From a virus, in the IMG/VR virus record IMGVR_UViG_3300047494_000112, positions 32,001-96,000 of that record: DNA of 64,000 nt; one strand, given 5' to 3'. The position numbers were made by a program, and so were the translations under genes. Below the pieces are notes generated by a model that was not told the origin of the DNA, ran no database searches, and worked only from the letters and a program-made list of their open reading frames with translations. Of the stretch, positions 2,865-58,727 are shown piece by piece (position 1 is the first letter of the stretch; each line of letters begins with the position of its first letter).

Positions 2865-3790
2865 TTTTGTAGCCCTTTATTATGTAGCCAAGCCTTTGCC
2901 AGAGTAACAACGTCTGGATCGTGGCTTTGAAGCATTTTACGGACTTCAGCTTCAGTGACACTAGCTTGAACGTTAGCACGCTTTGCAACGTTTTCAAAAT
3001 TAAAAAATTCAGCTGTGTCATCATCTTGGGTAGGATTTGGCTCTTTTTCCTTGGCGTTAGGATTACCTGAATTATCACGCAATTTTCCTCTGCCTTGATG
3101 ACCAGGTTTACCTAAAGTAATGCCATCAGAAAAACCAGGACGAATAGATGAGACTGGAGTACCTGTTTGAACTGCCACGTTTGCAAACATTGGAATGTGA
3201 GCCAAATCCGATGATAAAATCTTTTTTGGTCTTCCAATTTTAGGTTTTACATGGTTTGGATCTAAAGATTTGACAGCTTTTTTCACATGATATTTAATCA
3301 CGTTATCAATAGCTTGTCTAGATACACCGTGCATATCACCAATCTGTTTAAGAGTATGACCTTTTTTGCGTAAAGCTAAATACCTTTGTCCTGCTGTAGC
3401 CTGTTCACCTAATTCTTCAGGGTCAGGTAAAGTTTGTAGCTTTTTTAGCTTTTCTTGTTTTCTATGTTCACTAACTTTAGCATTTCGAGCTTGTTGATAC
3501 TCCAAATATTTTTTACGCTCTTCTGGATTTGTTTGATATTTTTGTTTTTGTTTTTCAACTTGTGCTTTATGCTTTTCTGGATTTGCTTCCCTGTATCTTT
3601 TAAATTGATCTCTTTTTTGCTCCTTAATTTTTTCACGAAACTCAGGATCAGTATGAAATCGAGTAATTATTGAGATATAAGGAGGAGATTTGCCAAAATG
3701 CTTTGCAACCTCAGTTTGAGTGTGCCCTTTGCCGAGCATGTCCAAATATTCTTGAACGTGGGGTGGAATAATGTGAGGTTTATTAGTCAT
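2861..3790 (-). CDS. double helix-turn-helix DNA-binding protein (sigma70 region 4-like HTH)
   Basis: GHTQTEVAKHFGKSPPYISII and GHTLKQIGDMHGVSRQAIDNVI joined by a charged helical linker. Confidence 0.7.
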   Translation of the reverse strand: MTNKPHIIPPHVQEYLDMLGKGHTQTEVAKHFGKSPPYISIITRFHTDPEFREKIKEQKRDQFKRYREANPEKHKAQVEKQKQKYQTNPEERKKYLEYQQARNAKVSEHRKQEKLKKLQTLPDPEELGEQATAGQRYLALRKKGHTLKQIGDMHGVSRQAIDNVIKYHVKKAVKSLDPNHVKPKIGRPKKILSSDLAHIPMFANVAVQTGTPVSSIRPGFSDGITLGKPGHQGRGKLRDNSGNPNAKEKEPNPTQDDDTAEFFNFENVAKRANVQASVTEAEVRKMLQSHDPDVVTLAKAWLHNKGLQK

Positions 3791-4016
3791 CGGCAGTAAT
3801 CAGATATTTAATTAGAGCAACAGCCATATCGTTAAGCTGAGCTCTATCAATTTGAATGTGAGCCTGTTCTCCCTGTTTAACAACTACGCCTTCTAAATTG
3901 TGATGAGGCTTGCTACGAATTGTAACGTAAACCCCACCGTCTGGATATTTGTTAATGGAAATGTATTCAGGATAACAGCCCTGTGTAGCTGTCCAAGCAA
4001 AAATGTTCTCAATCAT
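3783..4016 (-). CDS. hypothetical protein
   Basis: 77-aa ORF overlapping both neighbours on the coding strand. Confidence 0.65.
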   Translation of the reverse strand: MIENIFAWTATQGCYPEYISINKYPDGGVYVTIRSKPHHNLEGVVVKQGEQAHIQIDRAQLNDMAVALIKYLITADD

Positions 4017-4437
4017 TACTCTTTACTCCTAATTCTTTTAGTCTATTTCTTGCAGCGTGTTTAATAGACTCATCTTTATCATTCAATAGAGCTTTTGCGT
4101 GGTCAAGGTTTCCTTTCATAGCTACAGCTCTTCGTACTTCAGGAGAATAATCATGCAATAGCTTGTCTCTGTGCGAATCGTTTCCAGTCCAAGCGACAGT
4201 TCGTCTTACGGTAAAATCTTCATCATGCAATAGCTTGTCTCTATGGAAATCATTTCCATGGATAGCGACGGCACCTTTTATATCAGGATTATCAGAATGC
4301 ACTAGCTTATCTCTATGAAAGTCGTTTCCATGCCAAGCAACTCTTAATCTTACTCCAAAATTTTTATCCTCGACTAGCTTATCTAAGTGCTTAGGATGAC
4401 CAATGGTAGCTAGAGCTATGCGTTGTTTAATGTTCAT
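4009..4437 (-). CDS. 24-aa HEAT/LRV-like repeat protein (3 internal repeats, more diverged)
   Basis: IGHPKHLDKL cap, GNDFHRDKL repeats, GNLDHAKALL C-cap. Confidence 0.85.
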   Translation of the reverse strand: MNIKQRIALATIGHPKHLDKLVEDKNFGVRLRVAWHGNDFHRDKLVHSDNPDIKGAVAIHGNDFHRDKLLHDEDFTVRRTVAWTGNDSHRDKLLHDYSPEVRRAVAMKGNLDHAKALLNDKDESIKHAARNRLKELGVKSND

Positions 4438-5390
4438 GACTCAATTGGCTTTGCTATAGCATTAATGGCTGCAAACGTTTTCTCGTTTACTGATGAAAAA
4501 TGAAAACCTGATATCTTACCAGAAGCTGCTCCACCACCGGTTTTGCAGTTTGCTATCAAGTTCAGCAATGCTGGATTGTTTAGTGTTCTAGTGTAATACT
4601 TTGCAGTCATGCCAAATTCAGATCTCAAAGCTGTACGAGCTGCAGCAATGTTTTCCAATTTATCACTCTTGGCAATTCGATAATAGGTTTTACCTTTACT
4701 AGGAATTACTGCAATAATGATAAACATGCCAGGCTTTTTATCGTCACCAGCCTCTGCCTCATCGACTTCAATGCTATCCAGATCATGCGTAACAGTTAGC
4801 TTGACACCCGCAATTTCCTTCAACGGACCGGCCCATTGTTGAAAGGTTTTGCCATGAGCACCGGCTTTTGGATTAAACTCACCAGTCTTGATTGCAACGG
4901 TAAATTGCCATAGATGGCAACACTCATGCAGAAACGTATCGAATATATCAAATACAGTATTGTTTGTCTTATTGCTAACACCCAAATAATTTTCTTTTGG
5001 CTTGTATATTCCTGAAGCACCTTTGCGAGTAGCTGTGCCTAAATTGCATAAAGTTAATTTATCTTGCCAGATATATTTGTTAGCCCAATAAAACATGCAA
5101 GTCATTAGAGGAATCGTGCATACCTGAGCTTTTTTCATCAAGAAAAAGGAGCGAATATCAAAGTCAATGGGTTTGATTAACTTTTCGTGAGCACGAAACC
5201 ATTCTTTATCTACTGATTTTGGTATAAATTTTTCAAAGTATAAGATAGGAATAACGCGGTCCAATGTTGACGTCTGAGTTGTACCTTTGTCCAAAAGAAT
5301 TGTTGCCTCATTTCCCTGAACAGCCGTAGCAATACCAAGATTGTATAAACCAAGACCTGCTTTAATTAGGACTCTAGTGCCTGCTTTCAT
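4434..5390 (-). CDS. SprT-like zinc metalloprotease
   Basis: HECCH (HExxH) followed by downstream AHGKTF His, typical SprT spacing. Confidence 0.75.
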   Translation of the reverse strand: MKAGTRVLIKAGLGLYNLGIATAVQGNEATILLDKGTTQTSTLDRVIPILYFEKFIPKSVDKEWFRAHEKLIKPIDFDIRSFFLMKKAQVCTIPLMTCMFYWANKYIWQDKLTLCNLGTATRKGASGIYKPKENYLGVSNKTNNTVFDIFDTFLHECCHLWQFTVAIKTGEFNPKAGAHGKTFQQWAGPLKEIAGVKLTVTHDLDSIEVDEAEAGDDKKPGMFIIIAVIPSKGKTYYRIAKSDKLENIAAARTALRSEFGMTAKYYTRTLNNPALLNLIANCKTGGGAASGKISGFHFSSVNEKTFAAINAIAKPIES

Positions 5391-31307: not shown

Positions 31308-33652
31308 TGAGCATTGACCTTTATTTTAGCAGTAGTCTTATTATCTTTTCTAGTTAGTAGGACTGTCGAGGCTGTAGGTAACGATACCACTTTTTCATCA
31401 TGAGGCGTTAGGATAATTACGATCGGAACAAATTGTTGAAGTAAGGGGATAAAGTGCTGAAAAAAATAATTTCTATCTATTTCACTCATTCCGGCTTCAA
31501 CTTCATCCAGAGCTATTATATTTGGCTGTAGTTCCTTTGGCATTAGAATACGAAGAACCAAAGCTGACAAAGCAGAAAATTGTCTACTTTCAGAGCCAGA
31601 AAACGAGTTAACGTCTGCAATACCTCCTGATCTCTCAGCCACTATTGAAAAATTACTTTTTTTCAGATTGGAAGAGAATTTAATAGGCTCTGCAAAAATA
31701 CTACTAGCATATTGATTGCAAAGATTAATGTAATTGCTAACTAGTGTCTGAATGTGTTGAATACGAACACCTTTGGGTGAATAAATTTCAACCAGGTCTT
31801 GCATCAATTTATAGTCTTCTGTCTCTTGTTCAATCTGTTGGATTTCAGCTTTTAATCTAGTATAATTGTTAAGATCAATTTTTCCAGTTGAAACAGCTAC
31901 AGATAGTCTTTGTACCGTTTCATTCAACGGCATTATAGATTTAGACAATTCAGAATGAGTCTCTTTTAGTGCTTTATATCTTTCTCGTATTTGCTCACGC
32001 TCTGTTTTGGTATATTGCCGGTCGAGCCTTTGATGGACGGCGAGTTCAGACGTGATAAATTCAGCTTGCTTGGTAAGCTGTGCAAGTTTCTTTTTATTGG
32101 ATAATAGCGCTTCTTTTGAAACAGGCACCGAATTATTTTTGGGTAGATCATTTAACTGACGCTGCACACGCTGTAATTCACCTTTCGTATGCAAATGCTC
32201 TTCAACATGAACAAGTAGTTGTTTGGCGTCAGTGTACTCTGAATGTAATTCTTCAATACTTGATTCCCTAAAACGTTTGTCTAACTGATTAACTCTTTGG
32301 ATCCTGGAATAGTTTTCCAGCACTTCAAGCTGTTGTAGATATTTCGTTTTTTCGGTTTTAGCTTCTGCAATTAGTCTATCAACAGTAGATGAGGATAAAA
32401 TCTGATAACAAGTTGGGCATTTTTGTTTCTTTTGTAGTTGAGTAAACTCAGCAATTGTTGAATTGCTAGAAAACAAATTTGAGCTAATAACACTAATAGC
32501 TTCATTTATCTTCTCTTCTAAATTATGAATTTTTTCATAGGGCTCTAGTAAGGCTTCTGCTTTAGAAATAATACTATTACGATCTAAATGCCTCCAAGCC
32601 AAAATATCTGTTTCATGAATTGGGTATTCTTCTAGCAATAGTAGAGTTTTGTAGGATTGCTCGTATAAATTTTCCTGATCAGCTTCTGTAAAATTTCCGC
32701 TCTTTTTTAAGATACGCTTTAAAGCAGTTTTTTCTCGCTCTAATTTGAATCGTTTAAATTTTGCTTCTTCTGCGGCAATTTGTTTACCCCAAGCAATCTG
32801 CATTTCTTCAAGATCAGTTTCAATTCTGGTAGTCTCAATGCGTATATTCTTTAGTTCTTTTTTCAAAGTTTCAGAAGATTTTTCGCTCTTTAATGAAGAA
32901 AAGAGAGTGACCAAGGAATTGTATTTTTGTAGAGTTGCTCCAATTTTATCTAGTTTATGAACTTTATCTTGTAGTTTGGATGATATAGATTCAAGCTTTA
33001 ATGCCAGTTCTTGCTGCTCTTTAGGAGAAGCTTTAATTTCTTTTTTCTGGCTTACAAGCTTAGGTAATTGCATACGCGCTATTTTTTGTTGATTGGCTAT
33101 TCGTAGCAATTTTTTATTAATCACGTCATAGATACGGAGATTAAAAATTGACTCTATATAGTCATATCTAGCTGAAGAGCTCCCAATTTGAAGCACTGAA
33201 GGTCTAAAGGAATGAATATAGAGAAAAGAGTAGATATGGTCTGAATTTAGCTTTAGTAGCTTTTGAATCGTTTTACGCTGGTCATCAATCTTCATGACCT
33301 TTTGAGCTTTACCGTTGATCTTTATCTGGTAATCTAATTTCTTGTCGTATTTTTGAGTAATGACAAATTTGTTTTTGCCAGATGATCCATATAGAGTTGC
33401 TGAGCCTTTTTGAGGTACAATTTCTTTGGCTGAATTTTTCTTGGTTGAAAATGGAGGTTGAGCGAGCCATAAACCAATTAGAGCGTTGAACAGCATAGAT
33501 TTTCCGGCACGATTTCCGGAATATTTTTTACCTGATTTAATTGCATCTAAATTGATGCCTCGAACAACCCACAAAGGTGCAGAAGAGATGCTCCAAGAAA
33601 ATTCCTGATATAGATGATATCGTTTCAATTCAAATTTATCTAGCTTTATCAA
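31304..33652 (-). CDS. SbcC/Rad50/gp46-like recombination ATPase
   Basis: GNRAGKS, long coiled coil with CPTC hook, FSGSE signature, ALDEVE. Confidence 0.88.
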   Translation of the reverse strand: MIKLDKFELKRYHLYQEFSWSISSAPLWVVRGINLDAIKSGKKYSGNRAGKSMLFNALIGLWLAQPPFSTKKNSAKEIVPQKGSATLYGSSGKNKFVITQKYDKKLDYQIKINGKAQKVMKIDDQRKTIQKLLKLNSDHIYSFLYIHSFRPSVLQIGSSSARYDYIESIFNLRIYDVINKKLLRIANQQKIARMQLPKLVSQKKEIKASPKEQQELALKLESISSKLQDKVHKLDKIGATLQKYNSLVTLFSSLKSEKSSETLKKELKNIRIETTRIETDLEEMQIAWGKQIAAEEAKFKRFKLEREKTALKRILKKSGNFTEADQENLYEQSYKTLLLLEEYPIHETDILAWRHLDRNSIISKAEALLEPYEKIHNLEEKINEAISVISSNLFSSNSTIAEFTQLQKKQKCPTCYQILSSSTVDRLIAEAKTEKTKYLQQLEVLENYSRIQRVNQLDKRFRESSIEELHSEYTDAKQLLVHVEEHLHTKGELQRVQRQLNDLPKNNSVPVSKEALLSNKKKLAQLTKQAEFITSELAVHQRLDRQYTKTEREQIRERYKALKETHSELSKSIMPLNETVQRLSVAVSTGKIDLNNYTRLKAEIQQIEQETEDYKLMQDLVEIYSPKGVRIQHIQTLVSNYINLCNQYASSIFAEPIKFSSNLKKSNFSIVAERSGGIADVNSFSGSESRQFSALSALVLRILMPKELQPNIIALDEVEAGMSEIDRNYFFQHFIPLLQQFVPIVIILTPHDEKVVSLPTASTVLLTRKDNKTTAKIKVNAQ

Positions 33653-41337: not shown

Positions 41338-42688
41338 GACCGGCCATTGCTACGGCGAACGGATGTAAGGTGCGTTCAATTTCAATTGTTCCGTAGTGAT
41401 GTCCTAAAACAGAAGGCAGCCTTCTGTAAGCCATTGGACTCTCGTCTAAATCACCACCATGTATTGTTACATTTCTTGCAGTCAACCACTTGTGCCACTC
41501 TTCATTTGAAAACCTTCGTTTGGCTTCTTTACGGCCAAACAAACGACCAGCACCATGAACAGTTGAATACAAACCTTTTGCTGCTCTATCATTTTCTACG
41601 CCATGAACAATCACAGCATCATCACCCATAGAGCCGCCAACAAAACCGCGTTGGTTGGGAAACGCTGGCGTTGCACCTTTACGCACTACCCACAACATTT
41701 TACCCTCGTGTTCTTCTTGCCAAGCGTAATTGTGGTGGTTCTCAACGTAGTCAAGTTCTTCACCACCAATGATTTGTTTTACTCTACTAAGCACCCAACG
41801 ACGGCCTTCTCTAGCGTAATCACCTGCAAGTGTCATTGCAGAAATGTAGCGTTGACCTAGTTCACTAGCGACATTAACTACAGTGGGAGTTTCCCAAATG
41901 CCATCTTTGCCACCAGCCGCTTTTAGATATTTGGTTGCAGAAGAGTGACCTAATCCACGTGATCCAAAATGAACTCCTATCCATATTCTACAGTCTTCAA
42001 TTGAGCCACCAAATTCAGGATCATCCAAAGGCGTCTTGTCAATCAGAAGATCTACGTAGTGATTACCTGACCCTACTGTACCTAACTGTGACATTGCTTT
42101 GCTTTTGTAATCCATCCTATCTGCTTGACGCCATCTCTCGGTGTCATCAAACAAGGCGCTTTCCACTGGCTCATGATTGGTTCTGCCAACACCGAATGAA
42201 ATATGTTGCGTAATTTTCTCAATCAGACCTGGAATGTCGTGCATAATATCACGATATTCGATATCAAGCTGAATTGCACCACAACCACATCCAATGTCAT
42301 AGCCTACACCAGATATGCTGATCTGATCTTCATATGCAATGACTCCGCCAACAGGTTGAGCATAGCCAAGATGGCCATCAGCGCATAGTACGCCACTGAC
42401 AACATTTCCAACCTTCATGCAGTTTTGCATTTGTAGTCTAGTATTTTCTTCGTGCTCGCCGTACACTAGCAATGGTGCGTTTTGATATTTTTCTTCTTGA
42501 GGTGGTGCCACAAATTTTTCTGCTTCATGCTGCTTGAACTCTTGACGAGCTGATTCCTGGTATAAGCACCAGCGCATCATGGTCCTGCCTTTGTCACCCA
42601 TTGGTACACGTTCATCTGGATCTAAACCATCAATTAGGCACAACTCTCTGGCACGAGTCTCGTATGGATTAGCTTGACGTTCGTTCAT
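41309..42688 (-). CDS. rtcB: RtcB 3'-phosphate/5'-OH RNA ligase with N-terminal extension
   Basis: DGH, DIGCG, GSGNHY, HFGSRG, HHN, RKGA, HGAGR, DESP.AYR. Confidence 0.93.
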   Translation of the reverse strand: MNERQANPYETRARELCLIDGLDPDERVPMGDKGRTMMRWCLYQESARQEFKQHEAEKFVAPPQEEKYQNAPLLVYGEHEENTRLQMQNCMKVGNVVSGVLCADGHLGYAQPVGGVIAYEDQISISGVGYDIGCGCGAIQLDIEYRDIMHDIPGLIEKITQHISFGVGRTNHEPVESALFDDTERWRQADRMDYKSKAMSQLGTVGSGNHYVDLLIDKTPLDDPEFGGSIEDCRIWIGVHFGSRGLGHSSATKYLKAAGGKDGIWETPTVVNVASELGQRYISAMTLAGDYAREGRRWVLSRVKQIIGGEELDYVENHHNYAWQEEHEGKMLWVVRKGATPAFPNQRGFVGGSMGDDAVIVHGVENDRAAKGLYSTVHGAGRLFGRKEAKRRFSNEEWHKWLTARNVTIHGGDLDESPMAYRRLPSVLGHHYGTIEIERTLHPFAVAMAGRGEFDPFKD

Positions 42689-53648: not shown

Positions 53649-53866
53649 TTTTTTATGAGATAGTAGGTACATTGTGCTGCATGATTGCAGCAACTTTAAT
53701 GTGTTTTATGCCAAACAAAATGCCTTTGGCTCAAATATTCATGTTATTTTTAGCAGGCGATATAATACTTGGTTGTGTAGCAGCATCGAAGCACATTTTA
53801 TGGTTAACGCTTTTGATGGCTTATTATTGTTTGATCAATCTATATGGCCTTTGGAGATTAATTTAG
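53645..53866 (+). CDS. small membrane protein
   Basis: Three hydrophobic segments in 73 aa. Confidence 0.6.
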   Translation: MIFYEIVGTLCCMIAATLMCFMPNKMPLAQIFMLFLAGDIILGCVAASKHILWLTLLMAYYCLINLYGLWRLI

Positions 53867-54312
53867 TGACGGAAAAAGAAAAAGATTTGATACAGCGTTT
53901 AAATGGTTTGTTTGAGATAGAATTTAATCTATATTTTGTTACTCATTCAGCTCACTGGAACACGGTAGGAGTAACGTTTTACGAAATTCATCTATTACTC
54001 GAAAAACAATATACCCAAATTTGGGAATCTTTGGATGATATTGCAGAAAAGATTCGTCAATTAGATGCAGTTGCACCTTATGATTTACGCAAAATTGCTG
54101 CAAGTGAGGATATCTTAGACTGTCATGCCATGTCTGTTCAACAAATGGCTGAAACTTTGATGCGTAATCACGAAGTTACTATTGCTTGGATAAAAGGAGC
54201 AATTAGACTTGCAAAGGAAGCGGGCAGAGAAGACTTGGTAAATTACTTAGGTGGGTTGTGGGAGCAACATGGTAAAATGAGATGGATGTTGAGAGCCACA
54301 GCTCAACAGTAA
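53866..54312 (+). CDS. dps: Dps-family ferritin-like protein
   Basis: HWNTVG..F..IH..L..QY......D.IAE.IR; GTG start at 53866. Confidence 0.9.
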   Translation: MTEKEKDLIQRLNGLFEIEFNLYFVTHSAHWNTVGVTFYEIHLLLEKQYTQIWESLDDIAEKIRQLDAVAPYDLRKIAASEDILDCHAMSVQQMAETLMRNHEVTIAWIKGAIRLAKEAGREDLVNYLGGLWEQHGKMRWMLRATAQQ

Positions 54313-54337: not shown

Positions 54338-54429
54338 GGAAAGGTGGCCGAGTCCGGCTGAAGGCACCTGATTTGAAATCAGACGAACGTGCAAGCGTTC
54401 CGTGGGTTCGAATCCCACCCTTTCCGCCA
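54338..54429 (+). tRNA. tRNA-Ser(UGA)
   Basis: GGAAAGG/CCTTTCC acceptor, loop TT-TGA-AA, long variable arm, GGTTCGAATCC, encoded CCA. Confidence 0.93.
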
Positions 54430-54443
54430 AATGTTATTCTTAT

Positions 54444-54520
54444 TCGGGTGTAGCTCAGTTGGTAGTAGCAGAAGATTGTTAATCTTCAGGTCGTTGGTTC
54501 GAATCCAACCACCCGAGCCA
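54444..54520 (+). tRNA. tRNA-Asn(GUU)
   Basis: TCGGGTG/CACCCGA acceptor, GAAGA-TTGTTAA-TCTTC, encoded CCA. Confidence 0.93.
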
Positions 54521-55479: not shown

Positions 55480-56232
55480 ATGAGCAAATTACATGAAATT
55501 TTGGCTGTTGAAGGTGACCTCAAGAAAACCGCAACGGTAGTTCTTGATGAAGCCAAAAATACTTTGGCGAAAAAACCTGACCATTTCTTGAAAACAGCCA
55601 CGGTAACAAAATACTTTGATGAGAATGACATTAAGCTAAACACCGACGAGTATAAAGCTCTTGTCACTACCGTTGGAGATAAATTGGAATACGTTGGCGA
55701 GATGGTTACTCGTTACTATGATGCTTATCTGCAAAAAGAAGCAACAAATCAGCACGCAAAAGCTGACGTGGTAATAGATGGCAATGTTTTTCTCACGGAT
55801 GTTCCGGTAGTTGTTCTCTTAGGTATGGAGACAAAGCTAAAAGAGTTGCGTGACGTGTACGAAGCCATTCCTACACTACGTCCAGGCCCGGTTTGGGAAA
55901 TTGATCCAAATGAAGGCAAGGGTGTGTATCGTGCCAAGCATGATGAAAAGCGTTTCTTGACAAAGAAAACTCGAAAAGCTTTTGTTAAATCTCCGGCAAC
56001 TGACAAGCATCCAGCTCAGGTGGAGACAATTGATGAGGATGTTGCAGTTGCAGAGCGTGTAGTTACAACTTGGTCTAGCATGTTGTCTGTAACTGAAAAG
56101 TCTTTGCTGTTGGATAGGTTGGACAATTTGATCCAGGCTTTCAAGAAAGCACGTCAGCGTGCAAATGAAGCAGAAATTGTGCCTGCAGAAATGGGTAAAA
56201 AGATTTTCACTTACCTACATGCAGGTACCTAA
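55480..56232 (+). CDS. uncharacterised 250-aa helical/coiled-coil protein directly upstream of a structured RNA
   Basis: GGAG SD; KLHEILAVEG N-terminus, ATDKHPAQV motif; preceded by CTGGTAAAGT. Confidence 0.75.
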   Translation: MSKLHEILAVEGDLKKTATVVLDEAKNTLAKKPDHFLKTATVTKYFDENDIKLNTDEYKALVTTVGDKLEYVGEMVTRYYDAYLQKEATNQHAKADVVIDGNVFLTDVPVVVLLGMETKLKELRDVYEAIPTLRPGPVWEIDPNEGKGVYRAKHDEKRFLTKKTRKAFVKSPATDKHPAQVETIDEDVAVAERVVTTWSSMLSVTEKSLLLDRLDNLIQAFKKARQRANEAEIVPAEMGKKIFTYLHAGT

Positions 56233-56547
56233 CAAATAGACATGGTTCCGTCAACTTCACCGTGACGTTGACGTGTTGAGCCATGCACAAGGGTAAACTA
56301 AGCCTAACGCCTAAATCTCAAAATTATCATAATGATGGCCTGTGTCGAAAGCAGTGAGCCATTATTTTTGACCCACCAAAATTATTGGACAAGGCTGCAC
56401 TATGTTCTGATAAGCCAAAATACAATCGGGTCGCTGGTTCAAATCCAGCCTCTTCCTCCAAACTTTTATGGAAGAGTAACTCAGTGGTAGAGTACGATTT
56501 TTCATGATCAGGCAGACAGTAACTGAATACAGCGAATAGATCCAGTA

Positions 56548-56618
56548 TTCATCATGGCCGAATAGTAAGGCAATAGCTTTGTAAGCTATGGATGCGGGTG
56601 CGATTCCCGTTGATGTAA
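56548..56618 (+). tRNA. degenerate tRNA-Thr(UGU)-like element
   Basis: ATAGC-TTTGTAA-GCTAT, GCGGG-TGCGATT-CCCGT T arm, one acceptor mismatch, no CCA. Confidence 0.55.
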
Positions 56619-56627
56619 ATATACATA

Positions 56628-56655
56628 GGGGTGGTGGAAGGGTATCCACCACCCC
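56628..56655 (+). terminator. GC-rich 11-bp hairpin, possible terminator or 3' end of the ncRNA
   Basis: GGGGTGGTGGA/TCCACCACCCC; U-tract weak. Confidence 0.5.
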
Positions 56656-56946: not shown

Positions 56947-57105
56947 ATGTATGAGCTCTGGAAGGCTTTGATTGAGTTAGCTCATGGCACAAATAACGAT
57001 AAAGCTTTCATGAAAGCTGTTGCCGAATACATGTATCAATACAAACGACTAGACTACAATCAACAAGGCGAAATTTCACATCTAATAAATGAGAATCGAG
57101 CATGA
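56947..57105 (+). CDS. 52-aa hypothetical protein
   Basis: Fills the gap; TGA overlaps the next ATG. Confidence 0.5.
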   Translation: MYELWKALIELAHGTNNDKAFMKAVAEYMYQYKRLDYNQQGEISHLINENRA

Positions 57106-57884
57106 TCAAAATTTGGATAATGTCTGACCTTCATACTGAAATTACTGGACAAGAATTGCCTATCACCGACGTACCTGAATGTGATTATATTGTTATGGCA
57201 GGTGATTTTTCTAGAGCGTCCCTAAACACACTTCGAAATTTGGCAGGATATTTAGGTAACTCTACAGCCGATATTATTTATGTTGCCGGTAATCATGAAC
57301 ACTACAAATCATTCAGGTCTGTACCGGAAGCCATAAAAACTCTTGAGTCAGATTCACGGAATTTCAAATCACTGTATTTTGCTGAAAACAAGACAGTGAC
57401 TTTTTCAGGTATTCGCTTTATCTGTGCTACTTTGTGGACCGACTACAATTTGTACGGTGATCAGAACAATCACATGAATGTTGCCGAGCGTAGTATGAAC
57501 GATTTTAGCTTAATTCAAGGTGAACATTTTCCTTATTTGCGAGCTATAGACTGTATAGATTGGTATCACAAGTCTTATCAGTTTATCAAAGACGAGCTAT
57601 TAAAGTCTTTCGATGGTAAAACTTTAGTAGTCACTCACCATTTGCCTTCAGAAAAATCCATAAATCCTGTGTATGGAAAATCTAGTTTGAATCCTGCCTT
57701 TGCTAGCAATGCAGAAGAGCTAATTGCGTTAGAGCCAGACCTTTGGATTAACGGACATACTCATAGTAGCACCGATTATTATATCGGCAAGACTCGTATC
57801 CTTTGTAATCCACGTGGCTATTTATTTCGTAATGGTGAATACGAGAATAAACAGTGGGATCCTAAACTTGTCGTGGAGATTTAG
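57102..57884 (+). CDS. calcineurin-like metallophosphoesterase
   Basis: SDLH, AGD, GNHE, THH, GHTH, NPRGY. Confidence 0.9.
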   Translation: MIKIWIMSDLHTEITGQELPITDVPECDYIVMAGDFSRASLNTLRNLAGYLGNSTADIIYVAGNHEHYKSFRSVPEAIKTLESDSRNFKSLYFAENKTVTFSGIRFICATLWTDYNLYGDQNNHMNVAERSMNDFSLIQGEHFPYLRAIDCIDWYHKSYQFIKDELLKSFDGKTLVVTHHLPSEKSINPVYGKSSLNPAFASNAEELIALEPDLWINGHTHSSTDYYIGKTRILCNPRGYLFRNGEYENKQWDPKLVVEI

Positions 57885-57944: not shown

Positions 57945-58727
57945 TTGGTGGCCAAAATGAAAGAACAGATATTAACCTCCTTGTACCACATTCAAAAAGA
58001 AAAGGCTGTTCAAATTCTATTTGCAGTAGAAAGTGGCAGTCGTGCTTGGGGCTTTGCTAGCCCTGATAGCGATTGGGATGTCAGGTTTGTTTATGCTAGG
58101 CCTATTCGAGACTATGTTAGATTAAAGCTGATACCTGACCATTTAGATTATCAAGACAAAGAAAATGACATTGATTGCACAGGTTGGGATATTCGTAAAG
58201 CTTTATCTCTTCTGTTAAATGGCAATCACGCAATTCGTGAATGGATTAGGTCTCCTATTGTATATGTAAATTTTGAAGACAGCATTGCTAAATTTTCAGC
58301 AATTGCTGAGAGAACTCACGTTAAAACTCGTCTAATGTACTCGTATCGACACATTTTGATAAAGTGCATTAGAGATTATTTGGACTTGGCTACCGAACAG
58401 GTAAATTTAAAAAAGTATTTTTACGGTATTAGGTCCACCTTGGTGATGAAATGGCTTGAAAGTAACGAAGGATTTGTTCCTCCGATAGAATTGCATCAAT
58501 TACTAACCGAAGTAGATATTAGTAATGAAGTGTTGCAAGAAATTGAGCATTTGTTGGAGTTGAAGCAAAAGAGTTCTGAGTTAGGCTTAGGTGCAAGACT
58601 AAAGGCAGTAGATGAAATGCTGTTTGAATATTCTGGTAAATTGGGAGAGAACGCTGATCCAAAACACAGCCAGGTTTTATTGGATCAAGTTGATGAGCTA
58701 GTGTACACAATTACTAAGAGAGCATAG
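57945..58727 (+). CDS. RlaP-type DNA polymerase beta-superfamily nucleotidyltransferase
   Basis: ESGSRAWGFASPDSDWDVRFVY, GWDIRKAL. Confidence 0.85.
   Translation: MVAKMKEQILTSLYHIQKEKAVQILFAVESGSRAWGFASPDSDWDVRFVYARPIRDYVRLKLIPDHLDYQDKENDIDCTGWDIRKALSLLLNGNHAIREWIRSPIVYVNFEDSIAKFSAIAERTHVKTRLMYSYRHILIKCIRDYLDLATEQVNLKKYFYGIRSTLVMKWLESNEGFVPPIELHQLLTEVDISNEVLQEIEHLLELKQKSSELGLGARLKAVDEMLFEYSGKLGENADPKHSQVLLDQVDELVYTITKRA

Follow-up and report, generated by a model that had tools for sequence, protein, structure and literature searches.

Here, we describe a non-coding RNA with a permuted tRNA-like head, and the protein gene in front of it, in a stretch of viral DNA of 64,000 nucleotides (positions 32,001 to 96,000 of IMG/VR virus record IMGVR_UViG_3300047494_000112), which we call the window and whose own numbering is used throughout. 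The source is a 187-kb record of an uncultured virus that is 81% complete. Between 55480 and 56655, with every feature on the + strand, a gene of the DUF7873 family is followed by the RNA, a threonine tRNA gene and a terminator-like hairpin (Table 1). The roughly 300 nt behind the DUF7873 gene hold no credible reading frame; the RNA, 302 nt long, begins 4 nt past the stop codon, and its tRNA-like head lies 190 nt past it. In its shape the RNA resembles YrlA, the Y RNA of bacteria and mycobacteriophages that is bound by Ro60/Rsr (Chen et al. 2014, PMC4201824). Our analysis shows a genuine RNA of conserved structure that goes with DUF7873 in both phages and bacteria, independently of Ro60.

Table 1. 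Features of the DUF7873-RNA locus and its surroundings (window coordinates)
Feature	Position	Strand	Evidence or remark
DUF7873 protein gene, 250 aa	55480..56232	+	Pfam PF25283; conserved partner gene of the RNA
Whole conserved non-coding RNA (5' domain and tRNA-mimic domain)	56236..56537, ends approximate	+	Alignments, folding
Hairpin P1 of the 5' domain	56241..56285	+	Covarying outer stem (4-sequence RNAalifold), present in the minimum free energy fold
GGGU...ACCC closing pair	56291..56374	+	Encloses the repeat track (~56294-56335) and the variable hairpin 56331-56366
Closing helix H1	GCTG 56394-97 with CAGC 56530-33	+	Covariation
Closing helix H2	GTTCTG 56404-09 with CAG-U-AAC 56517-23	+	Covariation; U 56520 bulged
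Closing helix H3	GCC 56414-16 with GGC 56511-13	+	Covariation
Permuted tRNA-like head	56424..56499	+	Read from the sequence; all stems pair perfectly
Anticodon-stem 3' strand AATCG	56424-28	+	Followed by 4-nt variable region GGTC
T arm	56433-49	+	
Acceptor 3' strand CTCTTCC	56450-56	+	7-bp acceptor with GGAAGAG
U73 (T 56457) and CCA	56457; 56458-60	+	Start of the 13-nt linker closing the acceptor
Rest of linker, 9 nt	56461-69	+	
Acceptor 5' strand GGAAGAG	56470-76	+	Followed by UA
D arm	56479-93	+	Followed by A
Anticodon-stem 5' strand CGATT	56495-99	+	5-bp stem, no anticodon loop
tRNA-Thr(UGU)	56548..56618	+	Directly 3' of the RNA; Rfam 57.6 bits, ARAGORN
Terminator-like hairpin, 11 pairs then GCTTGTGTTT	56628..56655	+	Closes the gene-RNA-tRNA unit
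tRNA-Ser and tRNA-Asn	54338-54520		Rfam, ARAGORN
Calcineurin-like metallophosphoesterase	57102-57884	+	Just downstream of the pair
RlaP-type (PF10127) nucleotidyltransferase	57945-58727	+	Just downstream of the pair
RtcB ligase	41351-42433	-	206.8 bits

The swapped tRNA halves had first been noticed in an earlier annotation made from the letters of the window (hereafter the sequence-only reading), and each element that it listed is present where it was placed, with all stems perfectly paired. Because neither ARAGORN nor the Rfam tRNA model calls a tRNA at 56424-56499, the head is not simply two adjacent tRNA genes. The single nucleotides that are conserved across the family correspond closely to the set that makes the tertiary contacts of a tRNA (a T loop of the form GGUUCRAnUCC, U8, and A14, R15, G18 and G19 of the D loop), and besides these elbow-building nucleotides the family keeps NCCA and a U-A-U just 5' of the acceptor 5' strand. 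Where the anticodon loop would be stands an irregular, covarying helix of 14 bp, with loops of variable sequence.

The structure extends well beyond the head. The 302-nt RNA has a minimum free energy z of -2.97, and none of 100 shuffles folds as well. Three relatives retrieved through the protein (loci L002, L003 and L004, at 63-80% protein identity) retain the entire intergenic RNA beyond the tRNA-like part, with conservation spanning from just past the stop codon to the CAGC at 56530-33 (alignments A1, A2 and A4). The acceptor stem alone takes four forms related by compensatory changes (CUCUUCC/GGAAGAG, CCCUUCC/GGAAGGG, CUCGCCC/GGGCGAG and CGCCCCA/UGGGGCG), and changes of this kind are also seen in the T arm, the anticodon stem and the three closing helices (RNAalifold with a manual structure, four sequences). 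A covariance model built from the four sequences (R1) and another built from 21 diverse matches (R2) score the window RNA at 165 and 139 bits, respectively. In the set of 21 sequences 96.5% of cells are paired and 34 of the 35 pairs show double (compensatory) changes, and in the set of 103 sequences 93.8% of cells are paired, against 36-46% when the partners are slid by 1-3 columns; since alignments A6 and A7 were fitted to the model these percentages are somewhat inflated, which has to be counted against our interpretation, although the gap to the controls is still very large. By helix, pairing reaches 97-100% in the T, acceptor and D helices, where compensatory changes occur, and 94-98% in closing helices 1-3. 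Thus, the expectation that a covarying RNA would be found behind homologues of the upstream gene is borne out, the helices being kept through compensatory changes. The hairpins reported at 56241-85 and 56331-66 and the terminator hairpin are likewise present. The closing helix first proposed, CTGAT with ATCAG, does exist in the window, but it competes with H2 and is not kept in relatives. A single R2 match in the window and its close relatives identifies theirs as a single-headed variant; two tandem heads are found in the phages Phendrix and Racecar and in many actinobacteria.

That the RNA belongs with the upstream 250-aa gene, which the sequence-only reading had offered as a guess, is supported from both directions. 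An RNA-first pattern scan of IMG/VR, which was blind to the protein and required a T loop, ten unconstrained bases and TCCA and, past a gap, a D loop, returned 56 loci, most of them ordinary adjacent tRNA genes. In 13 the acceptor strands pair (7/7 in twelve, 6/7 in L025), and none of these overlaps an ARAGORN tRNA. By tblastn, 11 of the 13 permuted elements have a DUF7873 gene immediately upstream on the same strand. At L019 the upstream DNA ends too close to the RNA for the gene to be judged, and the sole real exception is L042, which has Ro60 in place of DUF7873. Tandem identical tRNA genes were tried as a source of the pattern and rejected, no ARAGORN tRNA overlapping any 7/7 element.

Starting from the protein gave the same picture. 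A DUF7873 peptide pattern yielded 80 IMG/VR loci, of which 79 extend far enough downstream, and an R2 match follows the gene on the + strand in 78 of them, full-length in every case except L146, which is end-truncated. The remaining viral locus, L104, has a weak R2 match (17.6 bits) at the expected place. At 2359-2650 of L104, a repeat track is followed by a tRNA-like element that appears to be in normal order (D arm, anticodon-like arm, T arm, acceptor 3' strand, UCCA). The same pattern matched in at least 577 bacterial species genomes; 80 genome loci were taken, and R2 matches were found in 72 of the 78 that could be tested, often as two tandem heads. The bacterial carriers include Streptomyces, Actinomadura, Nocardia, Micromonospora, Myxococcus, and members of Chloroflexota, Cyanobacteria and Planctomycetota. 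Among the matches listed from the protein-fetched loci, none lies on the opposite strand.

Cultured phages carry the pair as well. In all seven that were checked (Rhizobium RHph_TM30, Vibrio K481, Arthrobacter Racecar, Klebsiella KpLz-2_45, Gordonia Phendrix, Ralstonia phiRSL1 and Pseudanabaena Pam2) the RNA occupies the unannotated gap behind the gene, and several of these gaps lie inside tRNA gene clusters. The K481 GenBank record has a small hypothetical open reading frame (ORF) antisense to DUF7873 across the gap (L068 2408-2563), which is probably spurious. A census of flanking ORFs found no third conserved neighbour gene in phages or in bacteria; therefore, gene and RNA form a self-contained pair in variable surroundings.

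The product of the upstream gene matches Pfam PF25283 over nearly the whole profile (positions 1-242 of 244; E 1.7e-72, 244.5 bits against a cut-off of 27). Members of the DUF7873 family consist of one domain and are uniformly about 250 aa long; they fall into 2039 clusters at 50% identity. An AlphaFold2 model from 61 sequences (predicted local distance difference test score 91.8) places four long helices against a sheet with a long basic hairpin. Foldseek against the PDB and BFVD returned nothing at E <= 0.001, and in the PDB the template modelling (TM) score never exceeded 0.24; the sole row with TM >= 0.25 was an uncharacterised phage protein of 179 residues in BFVD (E 0.022, TMq 0.44, root-mean-square deviation 10.4). 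VIA-align against 48,161 chains gave generic helical-bundle rows only (Z <= 8.4) and no evidence of a new fold. A sequence-profile search of the PDB found nothing below E 0.1, PHROGs and PADLOC held nothing for DUF7873, and the ESM Atlas gave unnamed clusters only, at 0.81. Because there is no credible structural match, neither the fold nor the activity can be named. Ten polar residues are nearly invariant (H5, E24, D81, N90, E117, H177, Q180, K207, R225 and N229); these would be compatible with a binding or a catalytic site and identify neither. A literature search on DUF7873 found no paper, and one on permuted tRNAs and phage tRNA-like RNAs found nothing on the DUF7873-linked RNA; the three bacterial tRNA-mimic families of a 2026 preprint (skipping-rope, DUF2693-FD and salivarius-1) are other RNAs.

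Is the RNA, then, a YrlA? In a permissive Rfam search of the window RNA, YrlA (RF02553) was the only meaningful match apart from tRNA, aligned end to end (56405-56516, model positions 1-114), and this full-length alignment, with four covarying helices, upholds the earlier comparison with YrlA-type permuted tRNA mimicry. The two RNAs share the permuted topology (an anticodon stem opening into a long stem, a T arm, a loop-closed acceptor and a D arm), the retention of the tRNA tertiary nucleotides, the position beside a presumed protein partner and the occasional tandem copy; the 7-bp acceptor is shared with the YrlA of Mycobacterium smegmatis, which is cut by RNase P and CCA-ended. They differ in that the neighbour here is DUF7873 and not Ro60/TROVE, that most carriers are without Ro60, that about 80% of the DUF7873-linked members encode the CCA in the gene, and that the RNA, about 300 nt long, includes an additional 5' domain in which the 6-nt repeats lie. 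The Rfam score of the window RNA, 33.9 bits, is half the gathering cut-off of 69, and relatives score 35-39 bits.

YrlA RNAs have further been recognised by a Ro60/TROVE gene that lies no more than about 4 kb away on their own strand, and by a GNCGAAN0-1G motif near the 5' end that is the presumed Ro60 contact (Chen et al. 2014, PMC4201824). The sequence-only reading had pointed to such a motif, GTCGAAAG at 56344-51. Its place is the loop of a hairpin that varies, and L002, L003 and L004 do not have it at the same site; GNCGAA is not conserved in the wider set, does not appear as a conserved motif in the family consensus and occurs once in the window, and GTCGAAAG is, on this comparison, a chance match to the Ro-site motif. 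Of four testable YrlA characters, the window RNA thus has the topology and lacks three, namely a score at the Rfam threshold, a nearby Ro60/TROVE gene, and GNCGAA. The earlier observation that the window holds no TROVE gene extends to the whole 187-kb record, and the combination that would have marked a known system, a strong YrlA match plus a Ro60 gene elsewhere, was not what we found: the match is weak and Ro60 was not found.

It could nonetheless be argued that this is an ordinary YrlA serving a Ro60 encoded in the missing 19% of the phage genome or in the host, with DUF7873 as an unrelated neighbour. The shared fold and the Rfam match favour such a view, as does the incompleteness of the record, and the Rhizobium phage RHph_TM30 (MN988521.1) has both proteins, with a Ro60/TROVE gene 6.5 kb from its DUF7873-RNA pair. 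That Ro60, however, has two YrlA-like RNAs of its own directly upstream (L156/L157, ~139.4-142.1 kb), unannotated in the record, so that the RNAs of this phage are paralogous in shape and each stands beside its own protein. The Ro60-adjacent RNAs score no better against the Rfam YrlA model (36-37 bits) than the DUF7873-linked one (35.9 bits), and hence the Rfam cut-off does not separate the two kinds of RNA in phages. A classical Ro60/YrlA locus is also provided by L042, a GC-rich phage contig in which two tandem permuted tRNA-like RNAs (4687-5021, - strand) lie directly upstream of a gene with TROVE and vWA domains (2945-4606, - strand); neither RNA reaches the Rfam YrlA cut-off. One of them has a 7-bp acceptor, U-CCA and just 3 nt more of linker, which shows that an encoded CCA is not peculiar to the DUF7873-linked RNAs. 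Against an ordinary YrlA stand the strength of the DUF7873 linkage in viruses and bacteria, the lack of conservation of the Ro-site motif, and the neighbours themselves, since only 1 of 97 viral neighbour ORFs is Ro60-like. TROVE was not found in three IMG/VR carrier genomes that are complete by their terminal repeats, nor in the genomes of Vibrio K481, Racecar, KpLz-2_45 and Phendrix; the DUF7873-RNA pair occurs without Ro60 in seven complete phage genomes. We therefore judge an ordinary YrlA to be quite unlikely.

The 5' domain carries a track of 6-nt repeats. The GGGY/RCCC pairing and hexamers of the AAACUN type are conserved in eight relatives, including RHph_TM30. When the 150 nt upstream of the head were scanned across the family, the best 36-nt window had a mean identity at lag 6 of 0.52, whereas other lags and shuffles gave about 0.40, and a lag-6 identity of at least 0.6 was reached in 27 of 94 loci, against 0-3 at other lags. 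The repeat unit varies by clade (AAACUN in the clade of our window; CAGCUU, CAGUGU, GAGACU, UAUCUU and others elsewhere), and GGG often stands 5' of the track. In the window the track is degenerate (UAAACU AAGCCU AACGCC UAAAUC...); its lag-6 identity is 0.50, other lags give 0.16-0.42, and close relatives reach 0.53-0.64 at lag 6. A fixed period with a drifting sequence would be the expected look of co-evolution with a protein that might read one repeat per subunit.

Proteins that read short tandem RNA repeats are known from TRAP and from type III antitoxin systems, and the present RNA resembles theirs in having short repeats of fixed period beside the gene of a possible reader. It departs from them in the 6-nt period, in the 5-7 repeats whose sequence differs between clades, and in a DUF7873 protein without fold similarity. 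Could the pair be a type III-like toxin-antitoxin or defence cassette, in which the repeat RNA neutralises or regulates the protein? A stand-alone cassette of two components in wholly variable contexts, found in bacteria and phages and equipped with short tandem repeats, is what one would look for. In ToxIN, however, the repeat RNA lies upstream of the protein gene and the ToxI repeats are roughly 36 nt long, whereas here the RNA is downstream and the repeats are of 6 nt. PADLOC has no match, nothing in the protein is like a known nuclease, and the strongly conserved tRNA body would go unexplained. We consider such a cassette very unlikely.

The head itself has the features of an RNase P substrate. 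The acceptor is of 7 bp in nearly all rows of the 103-sequence alignment, NCCA comes next in 82 of the 103, and the linker has a median of 16 nt; position -1 is U in 53% and position +1 is G in 64% of rows. There is a published precedent in the M. smegmatis YrlA, the sole member with a 7-bp acceptor among the Y RNAs of Chen et al.: RNase P cuts this RNA in vitro, and in vivo it is found in two halves, of which one is CCA-ended (PMC4201824). Cleavage by RNase P with 3' trimming to a two-piece, CCA-ended mimic would fit both the family features and this precedent. The discriminator base is U in 48, G in 26, A in 16 and C in 13 of the 103 rows, and G3:U70 occurs in only four (the window has A3-U70); no single amino-acid identity is conserved.

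A permuted order invites the further suggestion of a permuted tRNA gene that is matured, by RtcB for instance, to a working tRNA, or of a two-piece transfer-messenger RNA (tmRNA). RtcB is encoded in the same phage, and a weak partial match to beta_tmRNA covers the T arm, CCA and acceptor. In the permuted tRNA genes of Cyanidioschyzon merolae and some archaea the 3' half also precedes the 5' half, with a short linker past the CCA position, and a normal anticodon loop is rebuilt via a bulge-helix-bulge splice. Here, in bacterial hosts, the covarying 14-bp helix permanently replaces the loop; the halves could not be joined to a 7-nt anticodon loop, given unpaired stretches of unequal length and three covarying helices beyond the stem, and the route to a real tRNA through RtcB that had been floated earlier thus finds no conserved anticodon loop to act on. 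Another early suggestion, a decoy for anticodon nucleases, fits poorly with a structure in which this loop is missing. Two-piece tmRNAs (of alpha- and betaproteobacteria and cyanobacteria; RF01850, RF04321) do share the order of T arm, acceptor 3' strand, CCA, intervening segment and acceptor 5' strand, and maturation into two base-paired pieces would be expected of both. The window RNA, unlike a tmRNA, has a full D arm and anticodon stem, and it lacks the G3:U70 alanine identity, a tag reading frame and pseudoknots; ARAGORN finds no tmRNA, the discriminator varies across the family, and in the 5' region indels between relatives break the frame, so that no reading frame is conserved there. Either form of this suggestion is, to our minds, extremely improbable. 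A permuted group I intron-exon arrangement was also considered and set aside, as no intron match was obtained at E <= 10 and the flanks simply pair with each other.

How is the RNA expressed? A sigma-70 consensus scan, which leaves a phage-specific promoter possible, found no promoter-like site between the DUF7873 gene and the RNA. With no such site between them and a terminator behind the tRNA, gene and RNA are probably co-transcribed, and the simplest reading of the sequence is a single transcript of gene, RNA, tRNA and terminator. RNase P processing of the 5' end of tRNA-Thr(UGU) would define the 3' end of the RNA. This tRNA begins just 14 nt past the last closing-helix pair; its acceptor stem includes a U1-A72 pair and a U2-U71 mismatch, its T loop (UGCGAUU) is unusual, and the gene does not encode the CCA. 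Across the family, a tRNA on the same strand begins within 60 nt of the RNA in 31 of 90 members.

Such an arrangement raises the alternative that the RNA acts solely in cis, RNase P cleavage giving the DUF7873 mRNA a nuclease-resistant, tRNA-like 3' end or organising the processing of neighbouring tRNAs, with no partner in trans. The RNA invariably follows the gene on the gene's own strand, mostly 80-200 nt past the stop codon, and the missing promoter and the frequent adjacent tRNA fit as well. The formation of a tRNA-like 3' end by RNase P has a known precedent in MALAT1/mascRNA (PMC8457004). Against a purely cis-acting element, other genes or tRNAs intervene between the DUF7873 gene and the RNA at L006 and L001, and gaps of 400-700 nt occur in several loci. 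Tandem second heads and a 6-nt repeat track exceed what a stabiliser would need, and the full set of tRNA tertiary nucleotides is kept. We regard this alternative as unlikely, though cis and trans roles are not mutually exclusive.

In light of these findings, what might the pair be? Because the RNA is almost always found behind DUF7873, and not behind Ro60, it probably marks an RNA-protein particle that has not been described. We consider it fairly probable that the DUF7873 protein and the co-transcribed RNA of about 300 nt are a two-part module forming a particle with a tRNA-like head. That DUF7873 is a new protein partner of the RNA is strongly supported as far as gene linkage goes, and binding is putative. 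In such a module, DUF7873 would bind the RNA, the repeat track and/or the closing helix being the most plausible site, and the RNA would have the role that a Y RNA has toward Ro60. The 3' domain of the RNA, a mimic of the YrlA type, has the L-shaped body of a tRNA, with the acceptor closed by a short U-CCA linker and a long irregular helix in place of the anticodon loop. By analogy with the M. smegmatis YrlA, host RNase P may cut between U56469 and G56470 and exonucleases may trim back to the CCA at 56460, leaving a two-piece, CCA-ended head held together by about 26 base pairs. This head could let the particle engage factors that recognise tRNA, whether in RNA surveillance and repair or in countering host defences directed at tRNA. 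A bolder version, which we put forward tentatively and think less likely than not to hold in full, is of a widespread, Ro60-independent ribonucleoprotein with about one DUF7873 protomer per 6-nt repeat, displaying an RNase P-made, CCA-ended body that is charged or that captures tRNA-handling enzymes or tRNA-directed toxins.

Several observations weigh against a particle of this kind. The protein has no recognisable RNA-binding domain or fold match, its isoelectric point is 6.3, and its basic stretch is limited to residues 151-175. About 20% of members, Pam2, Racecar, KpLz-2_45 and phiRSL1 among them, lack the CCA, and of 47 long linkers 18 have their CCA side base-paired in an extension hairpin; not every member therefore offers a free CCA end, which cannot be essential everywhere. 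In six loci from Bacteroidota metagenome-assembled genomes (L162, L164, L166, L169, L176 and L181) no RNA was detected within 1.6 kb downstream, even with filters off, which means that DUF7873 can exist without an RNA encoded in cis. At least two of the six have a terminator-like hairpin directly 3' of the DUF7873 gene, and in this clade the RNA has been either lost or encoded elsewhere.

The wider surroundings are suggestive. The metallophosphoesterase, RlaP and RtcB genes around the locus fit the RNA-repair toolkit that has been described for jumbo phages (PMC7824862). In the neighbour census, RNA-repair genes are not conserved partners of the DUF7873-RNA pair. At the Rfam gathering threshold, the three tRNAs of Table 1 are the only matches. 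In the clade of our window a ferritin-like gene lies just 5' of DUF7873 (window 53674-54312, L003 1466-1984, L067 405-962); across the wider family it accounts for only 1 of 97 neighbour ORFs at that position.

In addition to its place in this one virus, the RNA accounts for a recurrent "empty" gap of 300-500 nt in phage tRNA clusters, which some records have filled with spurious small ORFs. Y RNAs have been known only as partners of Ro60, and an RNA of the Y-RNA shape is tied here to a different protein. The carriers of DUF7873 extend over many lineages of phages and include culturable models such as Streptomyces, Myxococcus xanthus, RHph_TM30 and the Gordonia phage Phendrix, and RHph_TM30 offers a natural system for asking whether the Ro60 and DUF7873 modules are independent. 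If the pair is a particle, a function would be found for a large family of proteins now listed as a domain of unknown function, an RNA family that Rfam lacks would be defined, and the purpose of tRNA mimicry in Y-type RNAs, a question open since 2014, would become testable. Should the bolder version be true as well, the pair would represent a previously unknown route by which phages and bacteria intervene in tRNA metabolism.

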